From: a bacterium | GTDB taxonomy: Bacteria; Actinomycetota; Acidimicrobiia; Spongiisociales; Spongiisociaceae | Direction of reading: 5' to 3' | Length of the DNA stretch: 64,000 bases | NCBI GenBank assembly: GCA_028821575.1 | Contig: JAPPFW010000073.1 | Span: 11,434-75,433, forward strand | Shown: piece after piece, positions 13,845 to 58,765 of the stretch | Layout: every line of letters begins with the position of its first letter | Numbering within the stretch: position 1 is the stretch's first letter | Position numbers and translations under genes: made by a program | Notes under the pieces: generated by a model | Databases searched by the model: none | The model's input: only the letters and a program-made list of their open reading frames with translations | What the model was told of the DNA's origin: nothing

Positions 13845-14774
13845 CTAGAAGGCAACGCGGTCCAGGCCTTTCAGCGCCAGGCGGTCCCGGGTCTCGGCCG
13901 GGGTTGCAGGCTCGCGGGATAGCTCGCGCAGGATGCGCACGATCTTGGCCACCTGCTCTGCGTTGGACTCGGCCAGCTTCCCCTTGCGCAGGTAGATGCC
14001 GTCCTCAAGGCCGACCCGGACGTTGCCCCCCAGCGTGGCGCCGGCAGTGACTATGTCGAACTGGTAGCGACCGCCTCCCAGGATCGACCATTCCAGGTCG
14101 TGACCGAACAGCCGGTTGGCGACCGTCTTCATCGCCACCACGTTCTCGATGTCCGGTCCTATGCCCCCGAACGTGCCCATGACGAACTGCATGAAGATCG
14201 GAGGCTGGATCAGGCCCCGGTCCGCGAAGTAGGCCAGCGTGTAGAGGTGGCCGACGTCGTAGGCCTCGAACTCAAAACGGCATCCGGTCTTCTCGGCGAG
14301 CACCGTCAGCATGTACTCGATGTCGGCGAACGTGTTTACGAAGGGTTCTCGCTTGGTGCTCTCGAGGTACGGCTCCTCCCAGTCGTACTTCCACCGGCCT
14401 TCGTAGCGAGGGATCATCTGGAAGAGCCCGTAGTTCATGGTTCCCAGATTGCAGGTGGCGAGTTCGGGTTTGAGGGTTTCGATCACCCGCAGGCGCTCTT
14501 CGATCGTCTGGCCGGTGGCGCCGCCGGTGGTGATCGAGATGACGGCGTCGCATTCGGCCTTGATGCCGGCACAGTATTCCCGGAAGATGCCCGGATCGGA
14601 GACGGGTCGCCCATCCACCGGGTCCCGGGCGTGGATGTGAATAACGCTCGCACCCTCACGGGCAGCGTCCACCGACTGGCGCACATGCTCGCCCACCGTC
14701 ACCGGGATGTCGCTGTTCATCGTGGGGGTATGGGAGGAACCCGTTACCGCGCAGGTGACTATCACGCCGCCCAT
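13845..14774 (-). CDS. beta-keto acid cleavage enzyme (BKACE/DUF849), likely dehydrocarnitine cleavage enzyme
   Basis: 309 aa. N-terminus VIVTCAVTGS...IHIHARDP...ISITTGG is typical of the 3-keto-5-aminohexanoate cleavage enzyme family. First gene of the carnitine operon. Confidence 0.8.
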   Translation of the reverse strand: MGGVIVTCAVTGSSHTPTMNSDIPVTVGEHVRQSVDAAREGASVIHIHARDPVDGRPVSDPGIFREYCAGIKAECDAVISITTGGATGQTIEERLRVIETLKPELATCNLGTMNYGLFQMIPRYEGRWKYDWEEPYLESTKREPFVNTFADIEYMLTVLAEKTGCRFEFEAYDVGHLYTLAYFADRGLIQPPIFMQFVMGTFGGIGPDIENVVAMKTVANRLFGHDLEWSILGGGRYQFDIVTAGATLGGNVRVGLEDGIYLRKGKLAESNAEQVAKIVRILRELSREPATPAETRDRLALKGLDRVAF

Positions 14775-19197: not shown

Positions 19198-19198
19198 G

Positions 19199-44206: not shown

Positions 44207-45544
44207 GTGCCCGCAGCCAGTGCGGGTCTTGACACTCACCTACCAGATTCCATCCCGCTGATGCTCCGCTCGGGGCGGTTCCCTTCCGCGTCGGCGGACG
44301 AGCAGTTAATCCCTCCTGCAGCCGCCGTGGCGCTGTTCGGGGTTGTCATCGTGGTCACGCACGGCATGGGCAACAGCCTCGTCCCGGCCTTGCTACCGCG
44401 GATCTCGGAGTCCTTCCAGGCGGGATACGGCGTTCTCGGGCTGACCGTTGCCGCCGGCCTTCTCTCCTACGGCGCGGGGGCGGTGGTCGGGATAAGGGTC
44501 GTAGACCGAGTCCCTTCACGGGGCTTGCTCGTGCTGTGCCTACTAGTCTGCGGCGCCGGGCTGCTGGCCGTCTCGGTGTCCGGGTCGCCGGCAACGATGG
44601 CTGTATGCGCCGTAGTCATCGGCTTGTCCTCGCCCATCAGTTGGTCCGTTTCCGTCTACCTCATCAGCCGGGTGGTCCGATCCGGTGCCCACGGCAGGGT
44701 GCTGGCCGTTGCCGCGGCCGGCGCCGGGGTGGGCAACGGCGTGAACGGTGTCTTCGTGCAGCTACTGACCGCGCCGGACCAGTGGAGGTGGGCCTTCGTG
44801 ATCGCAGGAGGCTTGGCGGTCGGCGCGGCGGTTGCGACACGGCTGGTTCTCAGGCACCCGATCGAGCCGCCGTCGAGGGTCGATGCCGGCCGGCAGCGTC
44901 GGATCTGGCGGCGGATATGGTCGGTACCCGCCGGTCGGCTCGTGCTCGGCTTGAGCATGGTGGCGGGCATCGGGACGTTCACGTTCGGCGGCTACATCTC
45001 CGAGATTGCGCTCGACGAACTTTCGGTGAGTTCCCCGGCGGCTGCCGTCCCGTGGTGGCTGGCCTCGGGGGTCGGAGTGTCGGCGGCCTTTCTGGCAGGT
45101 CTGAAGAGCGACCGGGGTTCCCCGGTCGGCGTCATGTCGATCACATCCCTCACCTACGCCGCCGCACTGACGGTACTGGCGCTCACCTGGTCCTACCCGG
45201 CTCTCTTGATAGCCACCTTCGGGTTCGCCGTGTTCAACTTCCCGATCTGGGGACTGTTCGGGCTGGTCGCCCACCGGGGTCTCCCACCGGAGTTGGCGGT
45301 CCGGTCCGTGTCGGGGGGTCTGGCCCTGGGTGCTTGCTCGGCGATGTGCGGTGTAACCGCAGCCGGATGGTGGATCGATCGGACCGGTAGCTTTCGCGGG
45401 CCTGCGATCCTGCTGGCAGTGATGATCGCGACTGTCGCGATATGGCTGGGTTCCAAGTACCGGACCGAATCGACGCCCCACTCGCAAGATCCTGCGAGAG
45501 GTGGCGACAAACCTGCTTACATCATCGATGGTGGCACCGGATAA
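44207..45544 (+). CDS. MFS transporter
   Basis: 445-aa ORF with about 12 hydrophobic segments. Start uncertain (an alternative ATG at 44261 gives MLRSGRF...). Substrate unknown. Its position after the FDH genes makes formate or oxalate-type transport only a guess. Confidence 0.7.
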   Translation: MPAASAGLDTHLPDSIPLMLRSGRFPSASADEQLIPPAAAVALFGVVIVVTHGMGNSLVPALLPRISESFQAGYGVLGLTVAAGLLSYGAGAVVGIRVVDRVPSRGLLVLCLLVCGAGLLAVSVSGSPATMAVCAVVIGLSSPISWSVSVYLISRVVRSGAHGRVLAVAAAGAGVGNGVNGVFVQLLTAPDQWRWAFVIAGGLAVGAAVATRLVLRHPIEPPSRVDAGRQRRIWRRIWSVPAGRLVLGLSMVAGIGTFTFGGYISEIALDELSVSSPAAAVPWWLASGVGVSAAFLAGLKSDRGSPVGVMSITSLTYAAALTVLALTWSYPALLIATFGFAVFNFPIWGLFGLVAHRGLPPELAVRSVSGGLALGACSAMCGVTAAGWWIDRTGSFRGPAILLAVMIATVAIWLGSKYRTESTPHSQDPARGGDKPAYIIDGGTG

Positions 45545-45547
45545 CAG

Positions 45548-45563
45548 CAACTGACCACTGACC
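45548..45563. repeat. 16-mer CAACTGACCACTGACC (tandem CTGACCA-type heptads), copy 1
   Basis: Exact reverse complement occurs at 54418-54433. A related ACTGACTACTGACCAC is at 5085-5100. All three sit directly after stop codons of convergent gene pairs. Confidence 0.7.
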
Positions 45564-46126
45564 TATTTACTCTTCTTCTCGAGGGTGATAACCAGCTTCC
45601 GGACGAGGTCCAGGAGGATGTCGTGCTCTTTGGGATCCAGATGTCTTGTGATCCTCTCGTCCGCCTCGATCGCCGCGCTGAGGAGTTCCTCTCTCAGAAT
45701 GCATGCTTCATCCGTCAGGCTCAGGTGCACGACTCGACGGTCCTCTTTGTTGCGATGCCTGTTCAACAGCCCCTTTTTGTACAGGTTGTCCACTTGGCGG
45801 CTTATCACGGAGGGGTCGTAGTGGGCGAGTTTTGCGATGGATCCGGCGGTGTTCGCTTCCCGTCGGAAGCACATGTCAAGGATGATGAATTGGCTCTCGC
45901 TGATTCCGAACTCCTTGAGCGACTGTTTCATACTTCTGAGGATCGCCGCTTCCAGGAGGATGACCCAGTACGAGAGCACCCTCGGGCGATGGATCATTCC
46001 CACTTCCGGCTTGTCTTCCGGCATCTCCTCGCTCAACAATCTTCGGGGCGGCATTCCAAGACCAGAGATACATGCAAATGCATCTTCTTTCGAGACTAGA
46101 ATAGTTGGTTCCAGGGCCGCTATCAA
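45563..46126 (-). CDS. MarR-family transcriptional regulator (low-GC gene)
   Basis: Winged-HTH core ...FGISESQFIILDMCFRREANTAGSIAKLAHYDPSVISRQVDNLYKKGLLNRHRNKEDRRVVHLSLT. The true start is probably an internal ATG (46024 or 45997). The gene is visibly AT-richer than all its neighbours. Confidence 0.75.
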   Translation of the reverse strand: MIAALEPTILVSKEDAFACISGLGMPPRRLLSEEMPEDKPEVGMIHRPRVLSYWVILLEAAILRSMKQSLKEFGISESQFIILDMCFRREANTAGSIAKLAHYDPSVISRQVDNLYKKGLLNRHRNKEDRRVVHLSLTDEACILREELLSAAIEADERITRHLDPKEHDILLDLVRKLVITLEKKSK

Positions 46127-46295: not shown

Positions 46296-47399
46296 CTACT
46301 GGTACACCGCCATCGGATCCGCGAGAAACTCCGGGTCGGGCTCGGCGCCAAGGCCGGGAGTTGCGGGAGCTCTGGTCATGCCGCCGAGGTTGCGGGCTCC
46401 TCCGATGATCGGGTCCACTGTGATCATCTCGTGGCAGAACCAGGTGCCCCGCCGGTACCGAGCCGGCGTCGACTGGGCGAGATGGACCGCGCCGGTGTCG
46501 GCCAAGGCGGTGCCGCCGGTGTCCTCGATGTTCAGTATCAGGCCCGTTTGAACGCAGAAGTCGCGTATCCGCCTGGCCTTGGTCAAGCCGCCCACCCGGT
46601 TCGGCTTGAGACCGATCCCCTCGCAGGCCCGGTCCCGGTGCGCCCGTAACAGGTCGCCGTAGGTGTGGATGATCTCGTCGAGGATGATGGGTTGGCGGGT
46701 AGCGCGCCGGACCTGGAAGGACTCTTCGTAGGTATCGCAGGGCTCCTCGAAGTAGGCGTCGACCGCCTCCGTCGCACGCATCACCCGGATCGCCCGGTCG
46801 GGTGTCCAGGCACGGTTGGCGTCGATAGTCAGGGAACATCCTGGCGGCATCCGTTCTGCCAGGTACTCGATACGCTCGATGTCCGACGCAACGTCCGATC
46901 CGACCTTGGCCGAGTGGATGGTGTAGCCCATGGCGTGGTATCGCTCGATGGTCCTCAACATCTCCGGAGGGTCGTCGCTGGGGATGGAGGACTGGATCGC
47001 CACCGCGCCGGGTCTGCGGCCCCCGAGCAGATCGCAAACGGGCAGGCCGGTGGCCTTCCCAAGGATGTCCCAGCAGGCAATGTCGACTGGCGACTTCACG
47101 TAGGGATGCCCCGGCAGAGCGATGTCCATCGCCGAGTTGACCACCTCGGTTCGCCGCGGGTCCTGCCCGAGCAGGACCGGCGCCAGTTCCTCGATGCCGG
47201 CGCGTATCCCCCTGGCAAAGGCGGGCAGATATGTCGATCCCCAAGGGCATCCTTCACCCCAGCCGGTTACTCCCTCGTCCGTGTCGAGCCTGATGAAGGT
47301 CGAGTCGAGTTCCTCGAAACGGAGGCGCCCGCCCTGTAGCTCGTAGGGCCGTCGCAGGGGTAGCGTCTGCGCGAAGACAGAGATCCGGACGATCTTCAC
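46296..47399 (-). CDS. enolase-superfamily enzyme (mandelate racemase/muconate lactonizing enzyme family). Racemase, epimerase or dehydratase of unknown substrate
   Basis: 367 aa from the GTG at 47399 (VKIVRISVFAQTLPLRRPYE...), which overlaps the upstream stop as GTGA. Metal-ligand positions TIDANRAW / YFEEPC / ILDEII. The tracked 628-aa ORF is an artefactual extension over the upstream gene. Confidence 0.8.
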   Translation of the reverse strand: MKIVRISVFAQTLPLRRPYELQGGRLRFEELDSTFIRLDTDEGVTGWGEGCPWGSTYLPAFARGIRAGIEELAPVLLGQDPRRTEVVNSAMDIALPGHPYVKSPVDIACWDILGKATGLPVCDLLGGRRPGAVAIQSSIPSDDPPEMLRTIERYHAMGYTIHSAKVGSDVASDIERIEYLAERMPPGCSLTIDANRAWTPDRAIRVMRATEAVDAYFEEPCDTYEESFQVRRATRQPIILDEIIHTYGDLLRAHRDRACEGIGLKPNRVGGLTKARRIRDFCVQTGLILNIEDTGGTALADTGAVHLAQSTPARYRRGTWFCHEMITVDPIIGGARNLGGMTRAPATPGLGAEPDPEFLADPMAVYQ

Positions 47400-48541
47400 G
47401 GGTCCAGCCGGCTGGCCGGGCCGTCCATTGCCGAGCGGGCGTGATCCGGGGGCTTGACCTCGATCACGATGGCTCCCACGTGTTCCTTGCGTAGGAAGGT
47501 GGCTTGCGCCGAGCGGAGCCGGTCCAGCGGGTAGGTGCAGGCCACCACGGGACGGACCTCCCCTCGCTCGATGTAGCCGACAAGGTTGGTGAAGACCCTG
47601 GGTGGCAGCACCGTGCACCCGTGCATCGTGATGTCCCTGAGGTAGAGGATGCGGAGGTCCAGGTCGACCATCGGGCCACCGATCGCGCCCGCCACCGTGT
47701 AATTGCCGCCCCGACGGATGGTGTCGAACAAGGCCGGGAACAGAGGGCCTCCGACTACGTCGGCAAGAGTGTCCACCCCACCCCCGCTGAGATCGAGGAT
47801 CTCGGTCGGCAGCGATGGAGACCCTCTGTCGAGTACATGATCCGCTCCGGTCAACGCCCGGATGTCGGCCGACTTGGAGGGCGATGAGATCCCGATTGTG
47901 GTCGCCCCGCGCCGGCGGGCCAGCTGGATCAGGGCGCTTCCCACCCCTCCCGAAGCACCGGTGACCAGCACGCAATCGCGTTCCTTGACTCCGGCTCGTT
48001 CCAGCATATGCTCTGCGGTCGAGTACGAGCAGGGGAATCCGGCCAGCTCGACATCGGTCAGGCGGCTCCGTACCGGGTGGGCGTTGGCGGCGGGCACCGT
48101 CACGTACTCGGCGTATCCCCCGTCGCGCTCCGAACCGAGGTATCGCGCTCCGGCCAGGTCCCCGTGCGGATCGCGCAGCCACGCATCGATCATCACCCGC
48201 TCACCTACCCGCCCACGATCCACCGATGCTCCCACCTCGGATATCCGCCCGACCGGATCAGCGCCCTGGATGCGCGGGAACGTGACGGCTCCCGTCCACG
48301 AACCGTCCGTGTCCGTGGTTGCGGTCTCTTCCCCGGTGGCGGTGTTGACCGACCTCGAGTACCAACCGATCCTGGTATTGATGTCCGTGTTGTTCATCCC
48401 GCACGCGCCCACCTCCACCAGCACCTCCTCCGGTCCCGGGGTGGGGATCGGAGCGTTGGTGACGTATTCCAGTTGGTCCAGACCTCCATGGCCTCTCAGC
48501 ACGACGGCGCTCATCCGACCGCGATGCCGCCTCAAGGTCAT
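47396..48541 (-). CDS. zinc-type/MDR-superfamily NAD(P)-dependent oxidoreductase
   Basis: 381 aa. VLVEVGACGMNNTD (catalytic domain) and VLVTGASGGVGSALIQLA (Rossmann). ATGA overlap with the upstream aminotransferase stop. Confidence 0.8.
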   Translation of the reverse strand: MTLRRHRGRMSAVVLRGHGGLDQLEYVTNAPIPTPGPEEVLVEVGACGMNNTDINTRIGWYSRSVNTATGEETATTDTDGSWTGAVTFPRIQGADPVGRISEVGASVDRGRVGERVMIDAWLRDPHGDLAGARYLGSERDGGYAEYVTVPAANAHPVRSRLTDVELAGFPCSYSTAEHMLERAGVKERDCVLVTGASGGVGSALIQLARRRGATTIGISSPSKSADIRALTGADHVLDRGSPSLPTEILDLSGGGVDTLADVVGGPLFPALFDTIRRGGNYTVAGAIGGPMVDLDLRILYLRDITMHGCTVLPPRVFTNLVGYIERGEVRPVVACTYPLDRLRSAQATFLRKEHVGAIVIEVKPPDHARSAMDGPASRLDP

Positions 48542-49875
48542 CCGCCGTCCCCCGCGCCCGGCCCGGACCCCCTGCCCTGCCCTCCGCCGAGTTGGCGGCA
48601 GGTGCGGTCCAGAGCCCGGGCTGTGGTGTCGAAGTGATCATCCGAGTGGGCCAGGCTCACGAAGCGCCGCAGCCCGGGTATGACGTTGATCCGGTTAGCG
48701 ACCAACGCCCGGTCGAGTTCGAGGTTGGCGGGCTGATCGGATTCCAAGAGATCTGCGTAGCGCTCCGGAGGTCGATCGATGTGGAGGATCTGCCACAGGG
48801 AACCGGCTGTCGCCACCAGGGCCCGGCGGCCGTGGGCGGCGAGCACCCGGGTCATCCGGCTGGACAGACGCTGCGCCCGGTCGGCCAGATCTTTGTAGAC
48901 GCCCGGTCGGCGGAGTTGTTCCAGTGTGGCCAGCCCGGCGGCCGCGGCCAGGGGGTTGCCGTGGAAGGTTCCCGAGGTGTACACGAACCGAGGGGTTCCC
49001 TTCAAGCGGGGGCTGGTCCGGTCGATGAGATCCGCCCGGCCTGCGACGCATGACAGCGAGCCACCTCCGCCGATGACCTTGCCGAAGGCGGCGAGGTCCG
49101 GAGTAACGCCGAAGTAGCCCTGGGCGCCCTGGTAGGACAGCCGGAAGCCGGTTACCACCTCGTCGAATATCAGGAGCAGTCCGTGCCGGTCGCAGAACCT
49201 GCGGAGACCTTCGAGGAATCCGGGTAGGGGCCGGATGATCCGCTGCACAGGCTCGACGATGATCCCTGCGACCCGGTCCACCACGGGGATCACCAGTCGT
49301 TCGAGTGCCTCCAGGTCGTTATAGGGGACCACCAGCACGGTGTCCCTCACCGCTCCGGGGGTGCCGGCAGTGAAGGGGCGGCCGGCTGGATAGTCGGCTG
49401 TGGTCGGGGCGGCCACTGCGATCCCGGCGTAGTCATGGTTGCCGTGGAATCCTCCCTCGAACTTGACGATCAGGTCACGCCCGGTAACTGCTCGTGCCAG
49501 ACGGAGGGAGTACGCGGTGGCCTCGGAACCCGTGGTGGCGAAGACTATGCGCTCTGCACACGGGATGGCGTCGACCAGTTGAGAGGCCAGTTCTATGGCC
49601 ACGTCGGTCAGGGTTCCGTACTGGTGCATGGTGCGTCCTGCCTGCCTGACGACGGCCTCCACCACCGCCGGATGCTGGTGCCCCAGGATGAGTGCCCCCG
49701 CACCGGTGACGTAGTCCAGGTAGCGGTTGCCGTCGGTGTCGGTTATGTACGCACCCGACGCGGAGGCAACGGCGAAGCGGGGGCCTGCCAGGTTGGTGTT
49801 GGCACCCAGTGCTCCGCCGGGAAGTAACGACTCCGCCCGGGCCGGGTCGGTCGGAGACCGGAGCCGCGCGTTCAT
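48538..49875 (-). CDS. class-III (omega/GSA-aminomutase-like) PLP-dependent aminotransferase
   Basis: 445 aa from the ATG at 49875 (MNARLRSPT...), with ATGA overlap with the upstream gene. Motifs YLDYVTGAGALILGH, FDEVVTGFR and the PLP-lysine context AAFGKVIGGG. The tracked 644-aa ORF is over-extended. Confidence 0.8.
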   Translation of the reverse strand: MNARLRSPTDPARAESLLPGGALGANTNLAGPRFAVASASGAYITDTDGNRYLDYVTGAGALILGHQHPAVVEAVVRQAGRTMHQYGTLTDVAIELASQLVDAIPCAERIVFATTGSEATAYSLRLARAVTGRDLIVKFEGGFHGNHDYAGIAVAAPTTADYPAGRPFTAGTPGAVRDTVLVVPYNDLEALERLVIPVVDRVAGIIVEPVQRIIRPLPGFLEGLRRFCDRHGLLLIFDEVVTGFRLSYQGAQGYFGVTPDLAAFGKVIGGGGSLSCVAGRADLIDRTSPRLKGTPRFVYTSGTFHGNPLAAAAGLATLEQLRRPGVYKDLADRAQRLSSRMTRVLAAHGRRALVATAGSLWQILHIDRPPERYADLLESDQPANLELDRALVANRINVIPGLRRFVSLAHSDDHFDTTARALDRTCRQLGGGQGRGSGPGAGDGG

Positions 49876-52328
49876 CTGCGGGGCCTCACCGAGTCCGGGT
49901 CCCATACGGGACCGTCCAGGACCTTCGCCGGGGCGAGCCTGCCCAGCACCATCACCTCGAGGCAGGTTCCCGGAACGTCGAGTCCGGGATCCACGTACGC
50001 CCACGCAAGGCTGCGGCCCGTGGCGTGTCCGTAGCCGGTCGTGGTCACCACCCCTACTCTTCTGCCGTCCATGAAGACACCTTCCCCGCCGAGTGGATCC
50101 ACATCCGTAACATCCACGTCCAGTAAAGCTAGCTTCCATCGGGGCCTGCACATGCTGGCAACGAGGGCCTCGTAGCCGATGTAGCCCTTCTTGACCGGAT
50201 CGACGAACCTCATCAAACCGGCCTCGTACGCGCTCACCTCCTGGGTCATGTCTCCGGAGACCCGGTATGCCTTCTCCATCCGCATGGAGTTGAGAGCGAG
50301 CGATCCGAATACCCCCAGTCCGAGCGTTGCGCCCGAGTCGGCGACAGCATCGAACACGGTGGGCAGGTCCTCCATCGGCATGTGGAGTTCCCAACCGAGT
50401 TCCCCGGTGAAGGACAGGCGCAGAGCGAGGGCCCGCGCTGTGGCGATGTCGACCGATCGCGCCGACAGCCATCCTCCGCCGGTGTTAGACAGGTCGGCGC
50501 CGGTGAGCGGTTGGAGCACTTCCCGGCTCCTTGGTCCTGCCACCGCCAGTACGCCCAGATCGGACGAGCGATTGGCGATCCTCACCCTTTCCGGGCCCTC
50601 CGGGCCGGCATCCCGGCCCTCCCGGCCGTCGAGAACGTGGGAACGCATCCAATCGAGGAACCGTACTTCCCCGACCGCGGCGCCCACCAGGTAGAAGCGA
50701 TCCTCCGCCAGGCGGGTGGCGGTGAACTCGGCCTCCACCATCCCCTGCTCGGTGAGCATGTAGACGAGGCCGATCCGACCCGGTTGAGGCAGGCGGCCCG
50801 GTGTGAGGCGGTCGAGGAATGAGGCGGCATCGGCGCCTGTCACCTCGAACTTGGAGAAGGCGGTCAGGTCGGCCACTCCGGCCCGTTGCCGCACCGCCCT
50901 GACCTCTCCGGCCACGGCGGCGAACCAGCGAGCTCTGCGGAACGAGTGGTGATGTCGAGCGGCTTCCCCGTAGGTGGCGAACCAGCGGGGTCGCTCCCAC
51001 CCGAAGACCTCCTCGAACACCGCACCGCGCCGAGCCATCCGGTGATGGAGGGTCGAAGTCTTGTGAGGGCGCCCGGCGGGACGGTCCAGGTCGGGAAACG
51101 GGACCTCGTGCCGCAGCAGGTAGTCCTCGTGGGCCTTGGTCCGGTTGTAGTCGGGTGTTGCGAACTCGCCGAACCGGGAAGGATCGAAGGCGCGCAAGTT
51201 GAGGGTGGGGGCGCCCCGCACCATCCAGATGGCGAGCTGTCGCGTGGCGCCCGGACCCCAGGAGATGCCGACCTGGCTTCCGGTGCAGTACCAGTAGTTG
51301 GCGAGGCCGGGCGCCGGGCCGAGCAGCATGTTGCCGTCGGGGGGATGGGTGATCGCCCCGTGGATCTCCTTGACGATGCCGGCGTCTGCCAGTACCGGGA
51401 CCCGCTCGAAGGCCGCTTCTAGCCACGGCGCCACCCGGTCGTACTCGGGGGCGAACAGGTGATGGTCTGCATCCCAAGGAGTGCCGTTCTCCCACACCGA
51501 GCGCGGATCCGCCTTCTCGTAGATGCCGATGAGACCCGCCCGCCTCTCCATCCGGATGTATCCCGACACGTGGGTGTCCTCGCGCAGCACGGGGAGTTCC
51601 CTGTCCAGGTCGGCGAAGGCCGGAACCTCCTCCGTCACGAAGTACTGGTGGGTCATGGGAATGATCGGCAGGTCCACGGAGGGTCCGGCCCAAGCAGCCA
51701 CCTGGCGGGCGTACGTGCCGGCGGCGTTGACCACCCGGTCACAGACGTACGATCCCGCCTCGGTCTCCACCCTCCAACGACCGTCGGGCAAGGCGACCGT
51801 TCCGGTGACCCTGGTGTTGCGCCTGATGGTGGCCCCTCTCATGCGGGCGCCTTCCGCGAAGGCGAATACCGCCCCGGCCGGATCCACATGACCGTCGTCC
51901 GGCGTGTGGAGGGCGCCGAGCACACCATCGAGGTTGCACAAGGGATGGAGTTCAGCGATCCGCTCGGGATCGACCGATTCCATGCGGTTTCCCACCCCGC
52001 GGCCCACCGAAACCGTGTAGTTCAGCCAGTCCATCTCGTCCTCCCGGACGGCCAGGCGCAACGAACCGGGCTGGTGCCAGCTCACCGACCGGCCGGTCTC
52101 CGCTTCCAGCTCTGCGTACTTGCGGGTTCCGTATCCGGTCATCCACGCCAGGCCGTAGCTCGAGGTCGAATGGGTTATCTGGCCGGCGGCGTGCCAAGTC
52201 GATCCCGAGGCCAGTTCTCCCTTCTCCAGTAGCAGGCAGTCGTTCCAGCCCTCGGCTGCCAGGTGGTACAGGAGCGAGACCCCCATGATTCCCCCTCCGA
52301 TGATGACCACCCGGGCGTCAGGGGTCAT
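49872..52328 (-). CDS. dimethylglycine/sarcosine dehydrogenase-family flavoenzyme with GcvT-like domain, paralog 2
   Basis: 818 aa. VVIIGGGIMG, SGSTWHAAG, C-terminal LSFTGELGWELH. First gene of a four-gene overlapping operon. Confidence 0.85.
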   Translation of the reverse strand: MTPDARVVIIGGGIMGVSLLYHLAAEGWNDCLLLEKGELASGSTWHAAGQITHSTSSYGLAWMTGYGTRKYAELEAETGRSVSWHQPGSLRLAVREDEMDWLNYTVSVGRGVGNRMESVDPERIAELHPLCNLDGVLGALHTPDDGHVDPAGAVFAFAEGARMRGATIRRNTRVTGTVALPDGRWRVETEAGSYVCDRVVNAAGTYARQVAAWAGPSVDLPIIPMTHQYFVTEEVPAFADLDRELPVLREDTHVSGYIRMERRAGLIGIYEKADPRSVWENGTPWDADHHLFAPEYDRVAPWLEAAFERVPVLADAGIVKEIHGAITHPPDGNMLLGPAPGLANYWYCTGSQVGISWGPGATRQLAIWMVRGAPTLNLRAFDPSRFGEFATPDYNRTKAHEDYLLRHEVPFPDLDRPAGRPHKTSTLHHRMARRGAVFEEVFGWERPRWFATYGEAARHHHSFRRARWFAAVAGEVRAVRQRAGVADLTAFSKFEVTGADAASFLDRLTPGRLPQPGRIGLVYMLTEQGMVEAEFTATRLAEDRFYLVGAAVGEVRFLDWMRSHVLDGREGRDAGPEGPERVRIANRSSDLGVLAVAGPRSREVLQPLTGADLSNTGGGWLSARSVDIATARALALRLSFTGELGWELHMPMEDLPTVFDAVADSGATLGLGVFGSLALNSMRMEKAYRVSGDMTQEVSAYEAGLMRFVDPVKKGYIGYEALVASMCRPRWKLALLDVDVTDVDPLGGEGVFMDGRRVGVVTTTGYGHATGRSLAWAYVDPGLDVPGTCLEVMVLGRLAPAKVLDGPVWDPDSVRPRR

Positions 52329-52390
52329 GCCTGGTCCGTATGCCGGGAACGCGGCCGGCGACAGGTTGCGTGGGACCGGAAGGGCGGTCT

Positions 52391-52434
52391 GGTACGCTTG
52401 TACGGATAATCATGATGAATCGTACAACTGTACC
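52391..52434. promoter_or_regulatory. 44-bp palindromic element in the dmgdh2/rpiR divergent region (putative operator)
   Basis: GGTACGCTTGTACG (52391-52404) and CGTACAACTGTACC (52421-52434) match at 12 of 14 as inverted repeats. The inner 7 bp are perfect (TTGTACG/CGTACAA). They flank an AT-rich core GATAATCATGATGAAT. Confidence 0.5.
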
Positions 52435-53326
52435 AAACCCTGACTCCGGTCTCGACATGCTCCTGGAGCACATGAGTTCGGTGATCGGCGGTATGGCCCC
52501 GCAGGTCCGAAAGGCGACCGCGTTCGTGCTCGACAACCCTGAAGAGGTCGGGTTCGCCACCGTGCGGGAGCTGGCTGGGTTGGCGGGCGTGCACCCCAAC
52601 ACCATGGTCCGCATGGCCCGGGTGGTGGGCTTCGAGGGCTTCGAGGACTTTCGCGAACGGTTCCGCACCGAGATGCGGAACCGAAGCTCGTTCCACGACC
52701 GGGCCGTGTCGCTGCAGCTGATCTCGTCGGGTGAGCGGCTTCCCGCCCTCTACGGGGAGATAGCGACGGTCACGCTCCACAATCTGGAACGTATGTTCGG
52801 CACTACCTCCGCCGCGGAGATGCAGGCGATCGCCGATCACATCGTGTGTTCGCGGCGTACCTACGTCATCGGGGTCGGCGCCAACTACGCGCTGGCTCAC
52901 AACTTCGCCTATCTGGCCGGTATGGCCGTGGACAACGTGGTGGCGGTACCCGGCGACGGGAACGTGCCGATGGACGGTGTCGTGAAGGCCGGGTCCGCCG
53001 ACGTGGTGGTGGCCATGACCTTCGCCCCCTACCGGGCGGAGGTCGTGGAGGCAACCGGCGCCGCTCGCCGGCAGGGAGCCCGGGTGGTGGGCATCACCGA
53101 CAGTCACGGCTCACCCCTCGCGCTCGACGCGGACCATCTGATCCTCGCCCCGAGCGCCACCCCGCAGTTCTTCCCCTCCACGCTGGCGGCGGCCGCTGCG
53201 CTCGAGACGCTGGTCTCGTTCATCGTGGCCGACGCCCCTCCGGAGGTGGTAGCCGCCATCGACCTCATGCACCAACGTAGATACGATCTCGGTGTGTACT
53301 GGAAACCAGAACGTGGAAACCACTGA
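52412..53326 (+). CDS. RpiR/MurR-family transcriptional regulator (HTH_6 plus SIS domain)
   Basis: ...VRKATAFVLDNPEEVGFATVRELAGLAGVHPNTMVRMARVVGFEGFEDF is an RpiR-type HTH, followed by a SIS-like region (YVIGVGANYALA). The start is ambiguous: 52412, 52415 or 52457 (MLLEH..., which best matches the E. coli RpiR N-terminus from memory). The tracked start at 52340 is unlikely. Confidence 0.75.
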   Translation: MMNRTTVPNPDSGLDMLLEHMSSVIGGMAPQVRKATAFVLDNPEEVGFATVRELAGLAGVHPNTMVRMARVVGFEGFEDFRERFRTEMRNRSSFHDRAVSLQLISSGERLPALYGEIATVTLHNLERMFGTTSAAEMQAIADHIVCSRRTYVIGVGANYALAHNFAYLAGMAVDNVVAVPGDGNVPMDGVVKAGSADVVVAMTFAPYRAEVVEATGAARRQGARVVGITDSHGSPLALDADHLILAPSATPQFFPSTLAAAAALETLVSFIVADAPPEVVAAIDLMHQRRYDLGVYWKPERGNH

Positions 53327-54416
53327 CTGCTCCGCCTACACCCGACCCCAGCGGGTCATGGATCCGCACGTCTACCTCGATGCGGATCTGTTCGCCCGCG
53401 AGCAGCGAAGCGTCCTCTCGGCCACCTGGCAGTACGCCTGCCACAGGTCGGATCTCGGACGGCCGGGAAGCTATGTCACGTTCGAGATAGCCGGGGAGTC
53501 GCTCTTCACGGTCAGGGACCGGCGAGGGACGATCCGCACGTTCTACAACGTCTGCATGCATCGCGGCCACCGTCTGCTCGAAGGCCGGGGCGCCCGCCCT
53601 AAGCTGGTCTGTCCCTACCATTCCTGGACCTACCGCTTGGACGGGCGCCTCGACCATGCACCGTACGCGGAGGGGCGGCCCGGATTCGAGCCTGGTGGGA
53701 TATGCCTCACCGAGGTTCCGACGGAGGATCTGTGGGGTTTCCTGTTCGTGAACCTCGACTGCGACGCGGCCTCGATGGATGTGGCCTATCCCGGCGTTCG
53801 GGGGTCGCTCCGTGAGTTCCTCCCTTCAATCGAACGGATGCGACCGCTCGAACGTCGGTGGTTCACTGCCGAGTCGAACTGGAAGGTAGCGATCGAGAAC
53901 TACAACGAGTGCTACCACTGCCGAACCGCTCATCCGTCTTTCTCCAGGGGAGTGGTGCTACCGGACACCTATACGATCCGGCCGGTCGGCCGATCCCTGC
54001 AGCACCGGGCCGAGAGTTCTCCCGAGCAGTACTACGAGATCGACCACCAAGCCTCCCCGCACGCCGCCGACTACCGGTCCTTCTACCTGTGGCCGCTGTT
54101 CTCGTTCCAGATCTATCCCGGGCCGGTGTTGAACACCTTCTGCTGGCGGCCCGAGACGGTGGACCGGACTGTATTCTTCCGCGAGTGGTTCAGCGTCGAC
54201 GGGGAAGACTCGCCGACCGTTCGCCGTGTGGCTGAGGAGGACGCCCGCACCACGGTGGCAGAGGATCTGGCCCTGATGCGTTCGGTGCAGGGGGGTCTTT
54301 CGAGCCGGGGCTACCGTCCGGGCCCCCTGGTCATCGACCCCGACATGGGCCTCAACAGCGAGCACACCGTGGCCGCGATCAAGGCCTGGTACCAGGACGC
54401 GATGGGGGACGTCTAG
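53292..54416 (+). CDS. Rieske [2Fe-2S] non-heme-iron oxygenase alpha subunit (candidate N- or O-demethylase)
   Basis: Rieske motif CMHRGH...CPYHSW. Mononuclear-iron motif NECYHCRTAHP. Start is 53292 (overlaps the rpiR end) or the ATG at 53358. No cognate reductase or ferredoxin gene is adjacent. Confidence 0.8.
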   Translation: MCTGNQNVETTDCSAYTRPQRVMDPHVYLDADLFAREQRSVLSATWQYACHRSDLGRPGSYVTFEIAGESLFTVRDRRGTIRTFYNVCMHRGHRLLEGRGARPKLVCPYHSWTYRLDGRLDHAPYAEGRPGFEPGGICLTEVPTEDLWGFLFVNLDCDAASMDVAYPGVRGSLREFLPSIERMRPLERRWFTAESNWKVAIENYNECYHCRTAHPSFSRGVVLPDTYTIRPVGRSLQHRAESSPEQYYEIDHQASPHAADYRSFYLWPLFSFQIYPGPVLNTFCWRPETVDRTVFFREWFSVDGEDSPTVRRVAEEDARTTVAEDLALMRSVQGGLSSRGYRPGPLVIDPDMGLNSEHTVAAIKAWYQDAMGDV

Positions 54417-54474: not shown

Positions 54475-55470
54475 CTAGCCCCTCTCCCTCGCCAGGCCGC
54501 GGCGGCGGGTTATCTCGGCGGAGATCGCCGGCACCACTTCGTGGAGGTCGGCGATGACCGCCCAGTCGGCCTTCGTCACCATCGGGGCGTCGGGGTCGAT
54601 GTTGATGGCGAGGATGTTCTTGGCACTCATCATCCCTACCCAGTGCTGGATGGCTCCGGAGATGCCGCAGGCGATGTAGAGGTCAGGTGCAACCACCGTT
54701 CCCGTCTGGCCCACCTGGAACTTGTGGTTCTTCCAACCGTTGTTGGTCACCACCCGCGAGCAGCCCACCGCGCCCCCGAGCAGGTCCGCCAGTTCCTCGA
54801 TGATGGCGAAGCCCTCGACACTTCCCACCCCGCGCCCGCCGCTGACCACCACCGGCGCGGTAGCGAGTGTGATTCCCTCCGAGACGGTCACCCGGTCCTT
54901 GACCATCGTGACCGCAGCAGAGTCGTCCAGCACCGGAACGAACTCCGCCACGTGCCCGGCGCCCCGGTCGGCGGCACGGGCCGCCTCGGTGCTGTGCGGG
55001 GCGAGCGTCACCAGCTTGGTGTGCGCCGCGAGCCGGGCCCGTTCGTGGAGGCTGCCTCCCCAGCGCACCCGGGTCATCAGCCAGTCATCCCCTTCGGACT
55101 CGATCTCCAGGCAGTTGGCGACCATTGCCAGATCCATCCTCGCTCCCACATGGGCCATGACCTCGTTGCCCCGGTCGGTCCCGGTTGCCACAACGGCCGT
55201 GGCACCAACCGAGCCGGCCAACTGCGCCAGGCTGTCGGCCCAAGCGTCGGGCCCGTAGTCGGTGAGCAACCCGTGGCGGACGAGATGGATCGCTTCGGCC
55301 CCGTAGGCAGCGAGTCCTCCCGCCGATCGGTCCGCTCCCTCCCCGATCACCGCGGTGTGGAGCTGTGCTCCCATGGTCTCGGCCAGGTGCCTGGCCCCGG
55401 TGAGGCCGCCCATCGTCGTCTCCTCGATCAGGCCACGGTCGTGCTCGACCAGGTACAGGAAGACGCTCAT
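54475..55470 (-). CDS. etfA: electron transfer flavoprotein alpha subunit
   Basis: 331 aa. C-terminal FAD-binding signature PDLYIACGISGAIQHWVGM. ATGA overlap with etfB. Confidence 0.9.
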   Translation of the reverse strand: MSVFLYLVEHDRGLIEETTMGGLTGARHLAETMGAQLHTAVIGEGADRSAGGLAAYGAEAIHLVRHGLLTDYGPDAWADSLAQLAGSVGATAVVATGTDRGNEVMAHVGARMDLAMVANCLEIESEGDDWLMTRVRWGGSLHERARLAAHTKLVTLAPHSTEAARAADRGAGHVAEFVPVLDDSAAVTMVKDRVTVSEGITLATAPVVVSGGRGVGSVEGFAIIEELADLLGGAVGCSRVVTNNGWKNHKFQVGQTGTVVAPDLYIACGISGAIQHWVGMMSAKNILAINIDPDAPMVTKADWAVIADLHEVVPAISAEITRRRGLARERG

Positions 55471-56234
55471 ACGAGACCTAACTCCTCCAGGATGTCGACG
55501 ATGGCCGGCGCTGCCTCCGCGCCCTCGCCAAGGATGTCGACCGTCGTCCCGACCGCCGGGGGCGTTGCCAGCACCACCTTCGACTGCCCGCTCGTGCCCG
55601 GGGTCGGCTCGATCCTCGACACCGGGGCCCGTCGAGCGGCCATCCGTCCTCTCAGCGTCGGGTACCGAGGCAGGTTGATGCCCTCCCTGACCCCCACCAC
55701 AGCCGGCAGCGGGAGTTGGTAGACCTCCGAGCCGGAAGCCGTCTCCCGGCGAGCGATGATCCGGTCGCCCGCGGTGTCTATCCCCTTGATGCCGCTGACC
55801 ATGGGCCGGCCCAGGGCCCGGGCCGCCCGGATCCCCACCTGGTAGCCACCCGAGTCGGCCGACTCGTTACCGAACAGGATCAGATCGTATGGTTCCCCCT
55901 GGTCGGACTCCGACTCGCGAATGGCGGCCACCAGGGCTTCGGAAGTCGAGACCGGCTCCCAGTCGGGGATGACGGTCGGTAGCAACACCGCCGAGTGGGC
56001 ACCCACCGCGATGGCCGAACGAAGCTGTTCCTCGGCTTCCGGCGGACCTAGGGTCATCACGGTCACGGATCCGCCCTCTCGCTCCACAATCTGCACCGCC
56101 TCTTCGACCGCGCACTCCTCGTGGGGGCTCACGGTGAACCCCAGCAATGAGGCGTCGATGTCCTGGCCGTCGGCGGTTAGGACGATCTTGGCCCCCGGCG
56201 CGGGGACCCTCTTGACGCAAACGAGGATCCGCAT
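55467..56234 (-). CDS. etfB: electron transfer flavoprotein beta subunit
   Basis: 255 aa. MRILVCVKRVP... N-terminus typical of EtfB. Confidence 0.9.
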   Translation of the reverse strand: MRILVCVKRVPAPGAKIVLTADGQDIDASLLGFTVSPHEECAVEEAVQIVEREGGSVTVMTLGPPEAEEQLRSAIAVGAHSAVLLPTVIPDWEPVSTSEALVAAIRESESDQGEPYDLILFGNESADSGGYQVGIRAARALGRPMVSGIKGIDTAGDRIIARRETASGSEVYQLPLPAVVGVREGINLPRYPTLRGRMAARRAPVSRIEPTPGTSGQSKVVLATPPAVGTTVDILGEGAEAAPAIVDILEELGLV

Positions 56235-56254: not shown

Positions 56255-58765
56255 TCAGCGCTTCATCCGGCTGTCGTCCGGATCGAAGAGCGGTTTCGAT
56301 CCGACTCGGGCCACCTTCACCGGGAACAGCTCGTTCTGATACATGATCCGGAGTTCGCTGCCTTCCTCCGCCATATCCGCGGGGAGGTACCCGAGCAGGA
56401 TGTAGGTGTCCAGGGATGGCGCCGCGCCCGCCGAGGTGACCCGGGACACGCGGCCCTTCGAGTCCACGATCCGATCTCCGTCCACGGTGAGGATCGGCTC
56501 GTTGCCGCCCATCGGGAACCGGGCTATGCCTGAGGTGGACACATGGCTCTCCATCGTCAGGGTGCAACAGACAGCCGCGGGGCCCGCTTCCCGCGCGGCC
56601 AGGTAGGCCTCCTTGCCGATGAAGTCGGCGGACTTGACCCTGGGCCGGGCCAGTCCGGCCTCGACCGGGTTGTACTCCGACTCCAGTTCGGCGCCCATGA
56701 GCCGGTAGCCCTTCTCCAACCGGGCCGTGGTTCCGTAGACGCCGGCTCCGACCGGGAGGACCCCGAACTCCCGGCCTGCCTCCCAGAGGGCCTTCCACAG
56801 CATGGGGGCGTGCTCCATGCCGGTGTATATCTCCCAACCGAGGTCGCCCACATAGGAGATCCGGAACATGGTCACGGGTGTCGAGTCGATGGTGGCGTGC
56901 TTGAAGGTTCCGTACGGAAATCCTTCGTGAGAGATGTCGTCGGAGGTGACCTTGCGGACCAGGCTTCGAGCGGAGGGACCCCATACCCCGATGGTGGACA
57001 ACGAGGAGGTCATGTCGGTGAACACCACGGATCCGTCCTCGGGGAGCCACTTGCGGAACCAGTAGGCGTCCCGGCCGCCGTCGAAGCCCCCGGTGACGAC
57101 GCGGAAGTGGTCCTCGCCCATGCGCAGGACCGTCAGGTCGGAACGGAAGCCGCCCTCCTCGGTCAGGAGGGGGGTGTAAACACCTCGCCCTGGCCGGTAG
57201 TCGAGTTGGTTCACCGTCATACGCTGCATGTAGTCGAGGGCGCCGGGTCCGCTGACGTCGAAGATGGCGAACGCGCTCAGGTCGATCATTCCCACCCGGT
57301 CCCGGAGGGCCAGGTGCTCGGCATTCTGGATTGGTGACCACCAACGGGAGTCCCACTCGTGGGGACGGTCGGGAATCCGATCGGCGTACTCCTCGAGGAG
57401 GGGGGCGTTCGACTCGTACCAGTGGGGCCGTTCCCATCCGCCCGCCTCGAAGTACACTGCCCCGAGTGCCGACGTGGTGCTGTGCAGGGTGCTGACGCGG
57501 CTGTCGCGCCGGCTGTCCCACTGCTCCCGCGGGTGGACGATGCCGTAGGTCTTGTTGAAGTGCTCCGCGCAGCGGGAGAGGATGTGGCTCTCTGTCTTCA
57601 TGTAGGGGTAGAACCGGGCGATATCGGAGGCATGAGGGTCGATCTCCGGGTATCCCTGGGTCATCCACTCGGCCAGCGCTCGTCCCGTGCCCGGTCCTTC
57701 CTTGATCCAGATCGCCGCGCACGACCACAGGTTCCTGACCTCCGGGGTCTCACCCACCAGGGGCATCGCGTCGGGAGTGAGCGAGAGCAGCCCGTTGATC
57801 CCGTACTTGATCTCGGCGTCTCCGAGGAAGGGCATGAGCTCCAAGGCCTCTTCGAGCTGGGGATCGAAGTCGTCCATGGTTAGAGGAAGCTCGGTGGGCG
57901 ACAGGCGGGCCTCATCGATCGAGGGGATGGTGTCCGGGTGATGGAAGATCGGCCGGTGGGCGTATGAACCGACCTCCATGGACCCGCCCGTCTGGCGCTC
58001 GTAGCAGAAAGTGTCCATGTCCCGGACTATCGGGTAGCCGATCTCGCTGTTGGTGGCGGACAGGATCTCGAGGGGTCCCACATCGATCATCTGGTGAACG
58101 GCGGGGGTTAAAGGGATGGAGGCGCCCGCCATCCGTGCCAGGCGGGGCGACCAGACGCCACAGGCGATCACCACGTACTCGCAGGCGATCCTTCCCTTGT
58201 CCGTGACCACCGCATCGATACGTCCCCGCTTCGTCTCGATGTCCAGGACCTCGGTCAGCGGGTGAACCGACAGGGCGCCCTTGGACTGCGCGTACTCGCG
58301 CATGAGGGTTCCTGCCCGCAGGGAGTCGACCACCGAGACGCCGGGCGTGTACCAGCCGCCCAGTATCACCGACTCGTCGAGGTAGGGGACCAGCTCCGTC
58401 GCTTCGGCGGGGCTCACGAGCCAACTGTCGATGCCCCAGCACTTGGCGGAGGTCATCCGGCGGCTGAGTTCGTGGAGCCGCTCAGCGGTCCGCGCTACCT
58501 CGATCCCGCCCGAGGTGACGCTGACCTCCATCTCCTCGTACTGTTCCTGGCTGTCGAGAGTGAGGTGGGCCATCTCCTTGTTGTGGTCGACCGGAAAGAT
58601 GAAGTTCGAGGCGTGGCCGGTCGATCCACCCGGGTTGGGCAGAGGTCCCTTGTCCAACTGGACGATGTCTCGCCACCCGAGAGCGGCGAGGTGCTTGACT
58701 ACTGAATTACCGACGATGCCTGCGCCGATCACTACGACCCGGGCGCTGGTTGGCAGGTCGCTCAT
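56255..58765 (-). CDS. dimethylglycine/sarcosine dehydrogenase or oxidase-family flavoenzyme with GcvT-like domain, paralog 3 (divergent)
   Basis: 836 aa. VVVIGAGIVG FAD fold, GGSTGHASNF in place of the STWHAAG motif of paralogs 1 and 2, and C-terminal ISYVGDLGWEIY. Heads the dmgdh3-etfB-etfA operon. Confidence 0.85.
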   Translation of the reverse strand: MSDLPTSARVVVIGAGIVGNSVVKHLAALGWRDIVQLDKGPLPNPGGSTGHASNFIFPVDHNKEMAHLTLDSQEQYEEMEVSVTSGGIEVARTAERLHELSRRMTSAKCWGIDSWLVSPAEATELVPYLDESVILGGWYTPGVSVVDSLRAGTLMREYAQSKGALSVHPLTEVLDIETKRGRIDAVVTDKGRIACEYVVIACGVWSPRLARMAGASIPLTPAVHQMIDVGPLEILSATNSEIGYPIVRDMDTFCYERQTGGSMEVGSYAHRPIFHHPDTIPSIDEARLSPTELPLTMDDFDPQLEEALELMPFLGDAEIKYGINGLLSLTPDAMPLVGETPEVRNLWSCAAIWIKEGPGTGRALAEWMTQGYPEIDPHASDIARFYPYMKTESHILSRCAEHFNKTYGIVHPREQWDSRRDSRVSTLHSTTSALGAVYFEAGGWERPHWYESNAPLLEEYADRIPDRPHEWDSRWWSPIQNAEHLALRDRVGMIDLSAFAIFDVSGPGALDYMQRMTVNQLDYRPGRGVYTPLLTEEGGFRSDLTVLRMGEDHFRVVTGGFDGGRDAYWFRKWLPEDGSVVFTDMTSSLSTIGVWGPSARSLVRKVTSDDISHEGFPYGTFKHATIDSTPVTMFRISYVGDLGWEIYTGMEHAPMLWKALWEAGREFGVLPVGAGVYGTTARLEKGYRLMGAELESEYNPVEAGLARPRVKSADFIGKEAYLAAREAGPAAVCCTLTMESHVSTSGIARFPMGGNEPILTVDGDRIVDSKGRVSRVTSAGAAPSLDTYILLGYLPADMAEEGSELRIMYQNELFPVKVARVGSKPLFDPDDSRMKR

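Follow-up and report, generated by a model that had tools for sequence, protein, structure and literature searches.

A conserved enolase-superfamily gene module in a Spongiisociaceae bacterium and its possible role in catabolism of an N-methylated compound

Background

Betaines are major osmolytes and act as currencies of nitrogen and carbon in the sea and in sponge tissue. To our knowledge, catabolic routes are known for few of them, namely glycine betaine, proline and hydroxyproline betaine, carnitine, trigonelline and homarine. The gene cluster analyzed here lies in a stretch of 64,000 nucleotides (positions 11,434 to 75,433 of contig JAPPFW010000073.1, GenBank assembly GCA_028821575.1) from a bacterium of the family Spongiisociaceae in the class Acidimicrobiia; this whole stretch is termed the window, and all coordinates are positions in it unless a contig or locus label precedes them. 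The cluster encodes an enolase-superfamily enzyme of the MLE subgroup (ENOL), a dehydrogenase of the dimethylglycine dehydrogenase type (DMGDH2), a class-III aminotransferase (AT3), a medium-chain reductase (MDR), an RpiR-family regulator and a Rieske oxygenase. Judged from sequence, these genes may well make up a module, under its own regulation, for the catabolism of an N-methylated compound of the alpha-amino-acid type, a tentative reading in which the substrate would most likely be a chiral amino-acid betaine with a quaternary or tertiary ammonium group at C-alpha.

Among described systems, the hydroxyproline-betaine/proline-betaine pathway of Paracoccus denitrificans and Pelagibaca bermudensis (HpbD, HpbB1C1, HpbA) resembles the module in that an MLE-subgroup enolase, a Rieske N-demethylase and a flavin-dependent demethylase are encoded in one betaine cluster (PMC3950512). 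The homarine operon homABCDER, which encodes TgnAB-like flavoenzymes, a peptidase and an aldehyde dehydrogenase, was considered as the identity of the module and rejected because its enzymes differ (PMC13236597).

Organization of the locus

The locus is a genuine, tightly packed gene cluster. Four genes on the minus strand encode DMGDH2 (49872..52328; 818 aa; Pfam DAO, FAO_M, GCV_T and GCV_T_C), a predicted N-demethylating dehydrogenase dependent on FAD and folate (GcvT fold); AT3 (48538..49875; 445 aa; Pfam Aminotran_3), a PLP enzyme of the glutamate-1-semialdehyde-aminomutase-like branch; MDR (47396..48541; 381 aa; Pfam ADH_N and ADH_zinc_N), a zinc-less reductase of the quinone-oxidoreductase/ene-reductase type; and ENOL (46296..47399; 367 aa, with a GTG start; Pfam MR_MLE_N at 61 bits and MR_MLE_C at 126 bits, both above cut-off). 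DMGDH2 overlaps AT3 by four nucleotides (ATGA, 49872-49875; junction sequence CAGATGAAC), AT3 overlaps MDR likewise (ATGA, 48538-48541; GGATGACC), and MDR overlaps ENOL by the four nucleotides GTGA (47396-47399; CCGTGAAG). On the plus strand, divergent from DMGDH2, lie the RpiR/MurR-family regulator (52413..53326; Pfam HTH_6 and SIS) and the alpha subunit of a Rieske non-heme-iron oxygenase of the quaternary-amine (CntA/GbcA/Stc2) type (53292..54416; Pfam Rieske and Ring_hydroxyl_A). The most likely start of RpiR is 52413 (ATGATGAAT), which gives a protein of 303 aa (homologs have 289-301 aa) and a spacer of 84 nucleotides between the divergent genes, rather than 52340; the Rieske start is ambiguous (GTG at 53292, GTG at 53313 or ATG at 53355), and the gene either overlaps the end of RpiR (stop at 53326) or abuts it. 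The GC content of the window is about 66%. No terminator was found after ENOL by a consensus scan, and the hairpin there is no better than those of shuffled sequences (z = -1.1).

An original prediction, made from the letters of the window, had described four minus-strand genes chained by 4-nucleotide overlaps, and open reading frames, translations and junction sequences all agree with it, as do Pfam and NCBIfam with its family assignments for all six genes. Its claim that the overlaps imply fixed stoichiometry was an over-reading, as 4-nucleotide overlaps alone are insufficient to show stoichiometry. Its four-gene chain stands, but the end that it set for the unit does not, since genes for ETF alpha (54475-55470) and ETF beta (55467-56234), both with Pfam ETF/ETF_alpha domains, and for DMGDH3 (56255..58765; 836 aa; Pfam DAO, FAO_M, GCV_T and GCV_T_C), a divergent third enzyme resembling DMGDH and sarcosine dehydrogenase, continue on the minus strand to 58765.

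Conservation of the module across genomes

A scan of a one-genome-per-species collection for ENOL orthologs at 55-95% identity gave at least 590 confirmed matches. The best 80 of these loci, together with two annotated plasmids, were compared with the proteins of the window (loci of this set carry L numbers below), and neighbors were counted in the 42 non-cyanobacterial loci with at least 6 kb of sequence upstream of ENOL and at least 2 kb downstream. A DMGDH2-type gene is present in 37 of the 42, an aminotransferase in 31 (class III in 21, class I/II in 10), MDR in 29, the Rieske gene in 26, a small protein of the CMD family in 17 and an aldehyde dehydrogenase in nine. When 119 further neighbor open reading frames were tallied by Pfam, RpiR (HTH_6 plus SIS) proved by far the commonest extra neighbor, with 21 of the 119 in at least 21 loci; the regulator, which had been thought not to fit the pathway, is a core conserved member of the module. 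All six families, in permuted order and with overlaps of 4-8 nucleotides kept, occur together on an Acidimicrobiia chromosome, a Pseudomonadota contig, a plasmid of Mesorhizobium sp. 131-2-5 and a conjugative plasmid of Sulfitobacter sp. SK012, and every gene in these four examples bears only a generic product name. A Sinorhizobium pSymA match was poorly annotated and uninformative.

Co-localization thus spans Acidimicrobiia, Alphaproteobacteria and Gammaproteobacteria, including the Mesorhizobium and Sulfitobacter plasmids, and the gene set is a conserved module, not a chance neighborhood. The prediction that the genes serve a single pathway is backed by this conserved co-localization across groups and by a conserved operator in the divergent promoter. 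Orthologs with an assigned pathway, which would have supplied a ready explanation of the genes, did not turn up in NCBI/JGI names, PDB titles, plasmid annotation or literature searches.

The genes beyond the Rieske gene are part of the same picture. L001, L002, L004 and the Mesorhizobium plasmid (L084) likewise carry ETF genes beside the module, and in L002 and L004 an 87%-identical DMGDH3 ortholog and ETF follow directly after ENOL, an arrangement that links both DMGDH3 and ETF with the pathway. MDR is absent between the aminotransferase and ENOL genes of the nearest relatives (L002-L006, with ENOL identity of 81-87%), the latter gene directly following the former.

Proposed pathway

In the proposed pathway, the Rieske oxygenase would hydroxylate a carbon next to the charged nitrogen, using electrons supplied by a reductase encoded elsewhere in the genome, and the first methyl group would leave as formaldehyde. 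DMGDH2 would move the next methyl group onto tetrahydrofolate and pass electrons to the adjoining ETF, and DMGDH3 would probably take off a further methyl group. The part assigned to ENOL would be an epimerization like that of HpbD, in which two lysines abstract a proton from C-alpha of the substrate, a betaine or N-methyl amino acid, while its carboxylate is held on Mg2+, giving the downstream enzymes the right stereoisomer. The freed primary amino group would then be taken by the HemL-like aminotransferase, and the resulting 2-oxo, imine or unsaturated acid would be reduced by the zinc-less MDR with NAD(P)H. Both arms of the divergon would be controlled by RpiR through a GGTAC-N4-GTAC operator pair. 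We infer the substrate class, the order of the steps, the choice of epimerization over dehydration for ENOL and the roles of MDR and RpiR.

Among the observations that speak for this pathway, the Rieske enzyme is nearest to the quaternary-amine enzymes CntA, GbcA and Stc2, and the module lies within an island of betaine genes. The idea of a catabolic route for an N-methylated compound, with which the original prediction ended, is supported at the level of a probable substrate class.

The enolase-superfamily enzyme

Among solved structures, ENOL scores 423 bits with 2QDD, 372 with 3EEZ, 308 with 4MGG (presumably a cis-3-hydroxyproline (c3LHyp) dehydratase), 191 with HpbD (4E8G) and 180 with 2PMQ. 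In a tree of 103 family members, ENOL forms a clade with 2QDD and 3EEZ that is well separated from the branch of 4MGG, 2RDX, the tandem "ENOL2" proteins and HpbD. Identification of SPO2414 (PMC3390766) with 3EEZ was attempted, and the link could not be established. Most of the P. denitrificans HpbD sequence was rebuilt from the HMMER alignment to PDB entry 4E8G and aligned with ENOL by MAFFT, so that K165, D193, E218, D241, K265, E292 and W320 of ENOL correspond to K164, D194, E219, D242, K266, D293 and W321 of HpbD, E292 for D293 being a conservative change. The rebuilt numbering of K164, D194, E219, D242, K266 and D293 agrees with the residues in the HpbD paper, which describes substrate-binding residues including a Trp and an Asp that hold the quaternary ammonium (PMC3950512). 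The figure legend of that paper prints "Trp312", which is probably a transposition in print; the sole matching Trp in the rebuilt sequence is 321, and the other residues fit the printed numbers.

K165, D193, E218, D241 and K265 are invariant across the 103 family members of the tree, and the three carboxylate metal ligands and the Lys acid/base pair at the ends of strands 2 and 6 are present in ENOL. A lack of acid/base residues would have told against the proposed role; the comparison with HpbD finds all of them in place. The suspected link to HpbD is therefore real, in that all of its catalytic and metal residues and its ammonium-binding Trp are matched, yet ENOL stands in a separate clade. 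That clade has the signature R25/H162/G295/W320, whereas the dehydratase clade has W at 295 and T or D at 320; 4MGG has N, F, W and T at the four positions, and neither it nor its clade has a Trp equivalent to W320. Because W320 is present, HpbD-like epimerization is favored for ENOL, which would make it an epimerase rather than a dehydratase; the role of W320 is taken from one published statement and an alignment. By its residues, ENOL is predicted to be catalytically intact and to be the ortholog of neither HpbD nor c3LHyp dehydratase. Its identification as a bona fide c3LHyp dehydratase was rejected, since it falls below the curated NCBIfam cut-off and in a different clade. The enolase paralogs on another contig of the same genome (C81) are acid-sugar-dehydratase-like, and no HpbD-like comparator was found among them.

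The nearest competitor to the betaine reading is a route through a hydroxy-imino or hydroxy-amino acid, which is rather unlikely. Two N-demethylations would yield a beta-hydroxy imino/amino acid of the 3-hydroxyproline type, ENOL would act as a dehydratase, MDR would be a new type of pyrroline-2-carboxylate reductase acting on a cyclic imine or enamine, and the aminotransferase would act on the ring-opened amino-keto acid. The best curated model for ENOL is indeed c3LHyp dehydratase, but its 360 bits fall short of the equivalog cut-off of 500, and although 4MGG outscores HpbD, ENOL belongs to the other clade with the pocket R25/H162/G295/W320. ENOL and MDR are the most widely kept pair of the module, present in cyanobacteria too, yet the nearest relatives lack MDR. 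Many proteobacterial loci have a second, tandem enolase of the 4MGG/2RDX clade, and the aldehyde dehydrogenase in nine of the 42 loci would fit 2-oxoglutarate semialdehyde; against this, there are no genes of the proline-racemase family or for known pyrroline-2-carboxylate reductases, and an aminotransferase would serve no purpose with a secondary amine as long as the ring stays closed. That versions of the module differ in aminotransferase class, two classes being used, points to a product with a primary alpha-amino group, in which the nitrogen is acyclic and not part of a proline-type ring.

Demethylating enzymes, aminotransferase and reductase

The Rieske protein has the cluster ligands C88, H90, C107 and H110 and the motif E206-x2-H209-x4-H214, with H209 and H214 as the iron His pair. 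Its best full-length match in the PDB is carnitine monooxygenase CntA (192 bits), Stc2 matching its N-terminal part only (101 bits), and its best NCBIfam match is GbcA, at 139 bits versus a cut-off of 670. That the oxygenase has no partner reductase had been predicted, and none is encoded beside it in the window; the only FNR-type Fer2 reductases of the genome are on other contigs (C81:14411-15079 and C75:23509-24138). At C81:12930-15079 lies a second Rieske paralog (32% identity), and after it the gene for an FNR-type reductase to which a plant-type ferredoxin domain is fused. The C81 reductase is a candidate for a shared electron donor to the reductase-less Rieske enzyme of the window.

AT3 scores 339 bits with the hemL model TIGR00713, below the cut-off of 527, and was rejected as a housekeeping HemL on this ground; GntE follows at 260 bits in NCBIfam, and the PDB matches include GSAM (268 bits) and D-phenylglycine aminotransferase (165 bits). 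Its PLP lysine is K266, within FGKVIGGG. The best NCBIfam matches of MDR are the PIG3-type quinone oxidoreductases and the crotonyl-CoA and acryloyl-CoA reductases, all far below cut-off, and its best PDB match is 4J6F, a "putative alcohol dehydrogenase" (318 bits). It has QGADPVG at residues 92-98, where zinc-dependent alcohol dehydrogenases have GHE, with A94 in place of His; it has the nucleotide-binding motif GASGGVGS, five Cys in all and no structural-zinc Cys cluster. It is called zinc-less by reference to what we take to be the zinc ligand positions (Cys, His and Cys, and the structural Cys cluster).

Several of these assignments would also suit a route for an omega-betaine resembling carnitine or gamma-butyrobetaine, in which ENOL would dehydrate a beta-hydroxy acid such as carnitine, MDR would reduce the enoate, the Rieske and DMGDH-type enzymes would remove methyl groups or the whole amine, and AT3 would turn an omega-amine into a semialdehyde. 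Among solved structures CntA is the closest to the Rieske protein over its full length, MDR belongs with the zinc-less ene-reductases, omega-amines are the typical substrates of class-III aminotransferases, and genes resembling gamma-butyrobetaine hydroxylase occur in cyanobacterial ENOL clusters. Such a route is nonetheless improbable: carnitine as a substrate is downgraded because the window has a dedicated set of genes from carnitine and gamma-butyrobetaine to glycine betaine (9059-14774), the characterized relatives of ENOL all act on alpha-ammonio or imino acids, and one variant of the module uses an aminotransferase of class I/II, the alpha-amino-acid type.

DMGDH2 matches mammalian (human) DMGDH in the PDB at 567 bits and has the motif SGSTWH46AAG, the His of which we take to be the covalent-FAD (flavinylation-type) His. 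It is 45% identical to its paralog DMGDH1 and 28% to DMGDH3. DMGDH genes beside ENOL orthologs are always closer to DMGDH2 than to DMGDH1, and thus make up a distinct orthologous group; that this group is tied to ENOL and stands apart from DMGDH1 hints at a substrate other than dimethylglycine or sarcosine. ETF alpha/beta is the probable electron acceptor of the DMGDH-type dehydrogenases, and DMGDH3 is a candidate for a further N-demethylation step.

An ordinary glycine-betaine pathway, with a GbcA-type Rieske enzyme, with DMGDH2, DMGDH3 and ETF as dimethylglycine/sarcosine dehydrogenases, and with the aminotransferase, MDR and ENOL as passengers of unrelated function in a shared operon, is very improbable. 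Achiral glycine betaine needs no enolase-superfamily enzyme, aminotransferase or reductase, and yet these are linked to DMGDH2-type and Rieske genes across phyla in shuffled order. GbcA is the best NCBIfam match of the Rieske protein, but at 139 bits against a cut-off of 670, and the surrounding island does concern glycine betaine but has betaine demethylation genes of its own (MttB with DMGDH1, and a corrinoid operon), while the divergon has its own operator; the 567-bit match of DMGDH2 to mammalian DMGDH is the remaining point in favor.

Regulator and operator

RpiR has the N-terminal HTH_6 (31 bits) and C-terminal SIS (59 bits) domains of its family in Pfam, and its gene adjoins the Rieske gene in L081, L082, L084 and L085 as well. 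The region between the divergent DMGDH2 and RpiR genes holds an operator-like inverted pair of GGTAC-N4-GTACS boxes (52391..52434; boxes at 52391-52404 on the plus strand and 52421-52434 on the minus strand), which spans the RpiR start and coincides with a 39-nucleotide inverted repeat centered at 52412/52413. The two matches to GGTAC-N4-GTACS in the 64-kb window, where 0.06 are expected, are both in this promoter. Relatives both near and far (L001, L003, L005, L006, L008, L012, L016, L060, L063, L068 and L080) likewise have a GGTACA..TGTAC box immediately upstream of their DMGDH2-type genes. The operator pair is the footprint expected of a local regulator, presumably RpiR, which is the probable regulator of the divergon to judge by domains and position. 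The presence of a sugar-phosphate-type RpiR/SIS protein as a core member, matches of AT3 to a C-6' aminotransferase and ForI at about 140-150 bits and a weak match of MDR to scyllo-inosose dehydrogenase could suggest an N-methylated amino sugar or aminocyclitol as substrate, which is the least credible of the alternatives, since ENOL lies in the MLE subgroup near enzymes of proline derivatives, not in acid-sugar dehydratase subgroups, no conserved kinase, sugar transporter or glycosidase is nearby, and the relatives of the Rieske protein act on quaternary amines.

Assessment of the proposed pathway

Several points weigh against a betaine pathway of the kind proposed. No conserved transporter that could serve as a clue to the substrate was found among the 119 neighbor open reading frames of the Pfam tally. 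The missing MDR gene in the operons of L002-L006 implies that the MDR step may be peripheral. DMGDH2 resembles mammalian DMGDH about as closely as a bacterial DMGDH can, and could simply act on dimethylglycine. A lone tryptophan indicates a quaternary-ammonium substrate only weakly; ENOL has G at position 295 and so lacks the second Trp that is shared by HpbD and the dehydratase clade. ENOL scores higher with c3LHyp dehydratase (308 bits) than with HpbD (191 bits), so that a dehydratase role would be equally compatible with its catalytic residues. The SIS domain of RpiR proteins usually binds sugar phosphates.

A more specific form of the betaine reading is possible, although on balance doubtful. 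It would be a pathway not described so far and shared across phyla, with a substrate from an algal, cyanobacterial or sponge source that is a chiral, acyclic amino-acid betaine, such as homoserine betaine or a hydroxylated relative. The 2QDD/3EEZ clade would then be a new family of betaine racemases that works with three N-demethylations, a HemL-like aminotransferase and a zinc-less MDR, the RpiR/SIS protein would sense a ligand that is not a sugar, and marine cyanobacteria with the ENOL/MDR pair, methyltransferases and hydroxylases might be the makers of the compound.

Other versions of the module and genomic surroundings

ENOL clusters are also found in marine cyanobacteria (Moorena, Okeania, Prochloron, Hormoscilla, Leptolyngbya PCC 7375, Richelia and others; loci L010, L019, L026, L035, L037, L083 and 12 others), with ENOL 60% identical and MDR 42-46% identical. 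These clusters have no demethylases and carry SAM methyltransferases, oxygenases resembling GBBH/TauD, PhyH and IPNS, a Sulfotransfer_5 protein, NAD_binding_2 dehydrogenases and, in one case, an NRPS; in appearance they are a biosynthetic counterpart to the module, for the compound that the heterotrophs degrade. In a second version of the module in Acidimicrobiia (L040, L044, L046, L051, L054, L059, L064, L070, L076 and L078), a class I/II aminotransferase replaces that of class III, and genes for an Amdase-like protein (arylmalonate decarboxylase family), a Sulfotransfer_5 protein and an FrhB/FdhB-like iron-sulfur flavoprotein lie between DMGDH and ENOL in the same ten loci. Proteobacterial versions have two or three enolase-superfamily genes in tandem (L068:8559-12332, L057:7788-11107, L082:8889-11122), among them one that belongs with ENOL and 2QDD and one that is dehydratase-like and belongs with 4MGG and 2RDX; the third in L068 groups with HpbD. 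Beside the module on the plasmid of Sulfitobacter sp. SK012 (L085:12864-20398) are genes for two sulfatase-like hydrolases, an MBL-fold hydrolase and a tripartite tricarboxylate transporter. The sulfatase-like genes of L085 and the Sulfotransfer_5 genes of other loci hint that a sulfate ester may be involved.

The window as a whole is an island for methylated amines, with OpuAC-type ABC systems, formate-tetrahydrofolate ligase, formate dehydrogenase and a corrinoid methyltransferase operon. Four co-directional genes on the minus strand (9059-14774) encode an NDP-forming acyl-CoA synthetase, an acyl-CoA dehydrogenase, a 3-hydroxyacyl-CoA dehydrogenase-thioesterase fusion and a beta-keto-acid cleavage enzyme (BKACE), a set that by sequence matches the known route from carnitine and gamma-butyrobetaine to glycine betaine. 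At 17632-21616, also on the minus strand, a gene for a non-pyrrolysine methyltransferase of the MttB family (17632-19197) adjoins DMGDH1 (19199-21616) with one base between the open reading frames, and the two may form another, independent pair for the demethylation of some betaine. With these dedicated sets at hand, carnitine and glycine betaine are already served within the island. Between the formate dehydrogenase genes and ENOL sit genes for an MFS transporter (44207-45544, plus strand; Pfam MFS_1) and a MarR regulator (45563-46126, minus strand; Pfam MarR), which are near ENOL and of uncertain membership in the module. Both are kept beside ENOL in L001, a relative at 95% identity (92% and 70% for the two proteins), and the MFS gene is kept in L007 (55%); the transporter is a possible uptake component.

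Comparison with known systems

The module recurs in at least several hundred species-level genomes, marine and soil, as the number of confirmed ENOL matches (at least 590) indicates, and may connect a compound made by marine cyanobacteria to its consumers. Three of its proteins have relatives solved by structural genomics that were never given a function: 2QDD and 3EEZ for ENOL and 4J6F for MDR are of the same clades as the module proteins, and their titles ("mandelate racemase/muconate lactonizing enzyme", "putative alcohol dehydrogenase") are generic and so give a fold but no function. The ENOL of the Sulfitobacter plasmid is 89% identical to 3EEZ and that of the Mesorhizobium plasmid 72% identical to 2QDD, and both are encoded in six-family modules. 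The identity of the substrate would annotate an orphan family of the enolase superfamily, a DMGDH subgroup and an RpiR subgroup at once, and the module merits experimental follow-up because cultured carriers (Sulfitobacter sp. SK012, Mesorhizobium sp. 131-2-5, Ruegeria pomeroyi DSS-3 and Roseovarius nubinhibens ISM) and crystal structures exist.

Several described enzymes share single features with the module. Mammalian DMGDH (5L46/4PAB), an ETF-linked dimethylglycine/sarcosine dehydrogenase, has the same four-domain architecture and flavinylation-type His motif as DMGDH2, which has ETF encoded next door; DMGDH2 differs in being an orthologous group tied to ENOL and separate from the MttB-coupled DMGDH1 at 45% identity. 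The gamma-N-methylaminobutyrate oxidase of nicotine catabolism follows the same logic, in which the amine is demethylated and, once freed, transaminated. Among solved structures the Rieske subunit has its best full-length match in CntA of the carnitine monooxygenase CntAB (192 bits); the subunit has E206 in place of the usual bridging Asp, and CntA presumably also has Glu at this position. Unlike CntAB, the module has no adjoining reductase of the CntB type, identity is only about a third, and the content of the cluster differs entirely. The c3LHyp dehydratases are the nearest curated family to ENOL (360 bits) and have the same fold and the same K/D/E/D/K set, but ENOL has W320 for T or D and G295 for W, R25 and H162 are specific to it, and it has no neighbors of the proline-racemase family.

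The module also differs from the Hpb pathway. ENOL is of a separate clade (191 bits to HpbD) and has G where HpbD has W296; the Rieske gene has no adjoining reductase gene, unlike HpbB1C1; the second demethylase is of the DMGDH type, with FAD, folate and a link to ETF, and not of the HpbA/StcD type; the regulator is RpiR rather than LysR; and the module, which includes an aminotransferase and MDR, has none of the steps of D-hydroxyproline oxidase, deaminase and semialdehyde dehydrogenase (PMC3950512).

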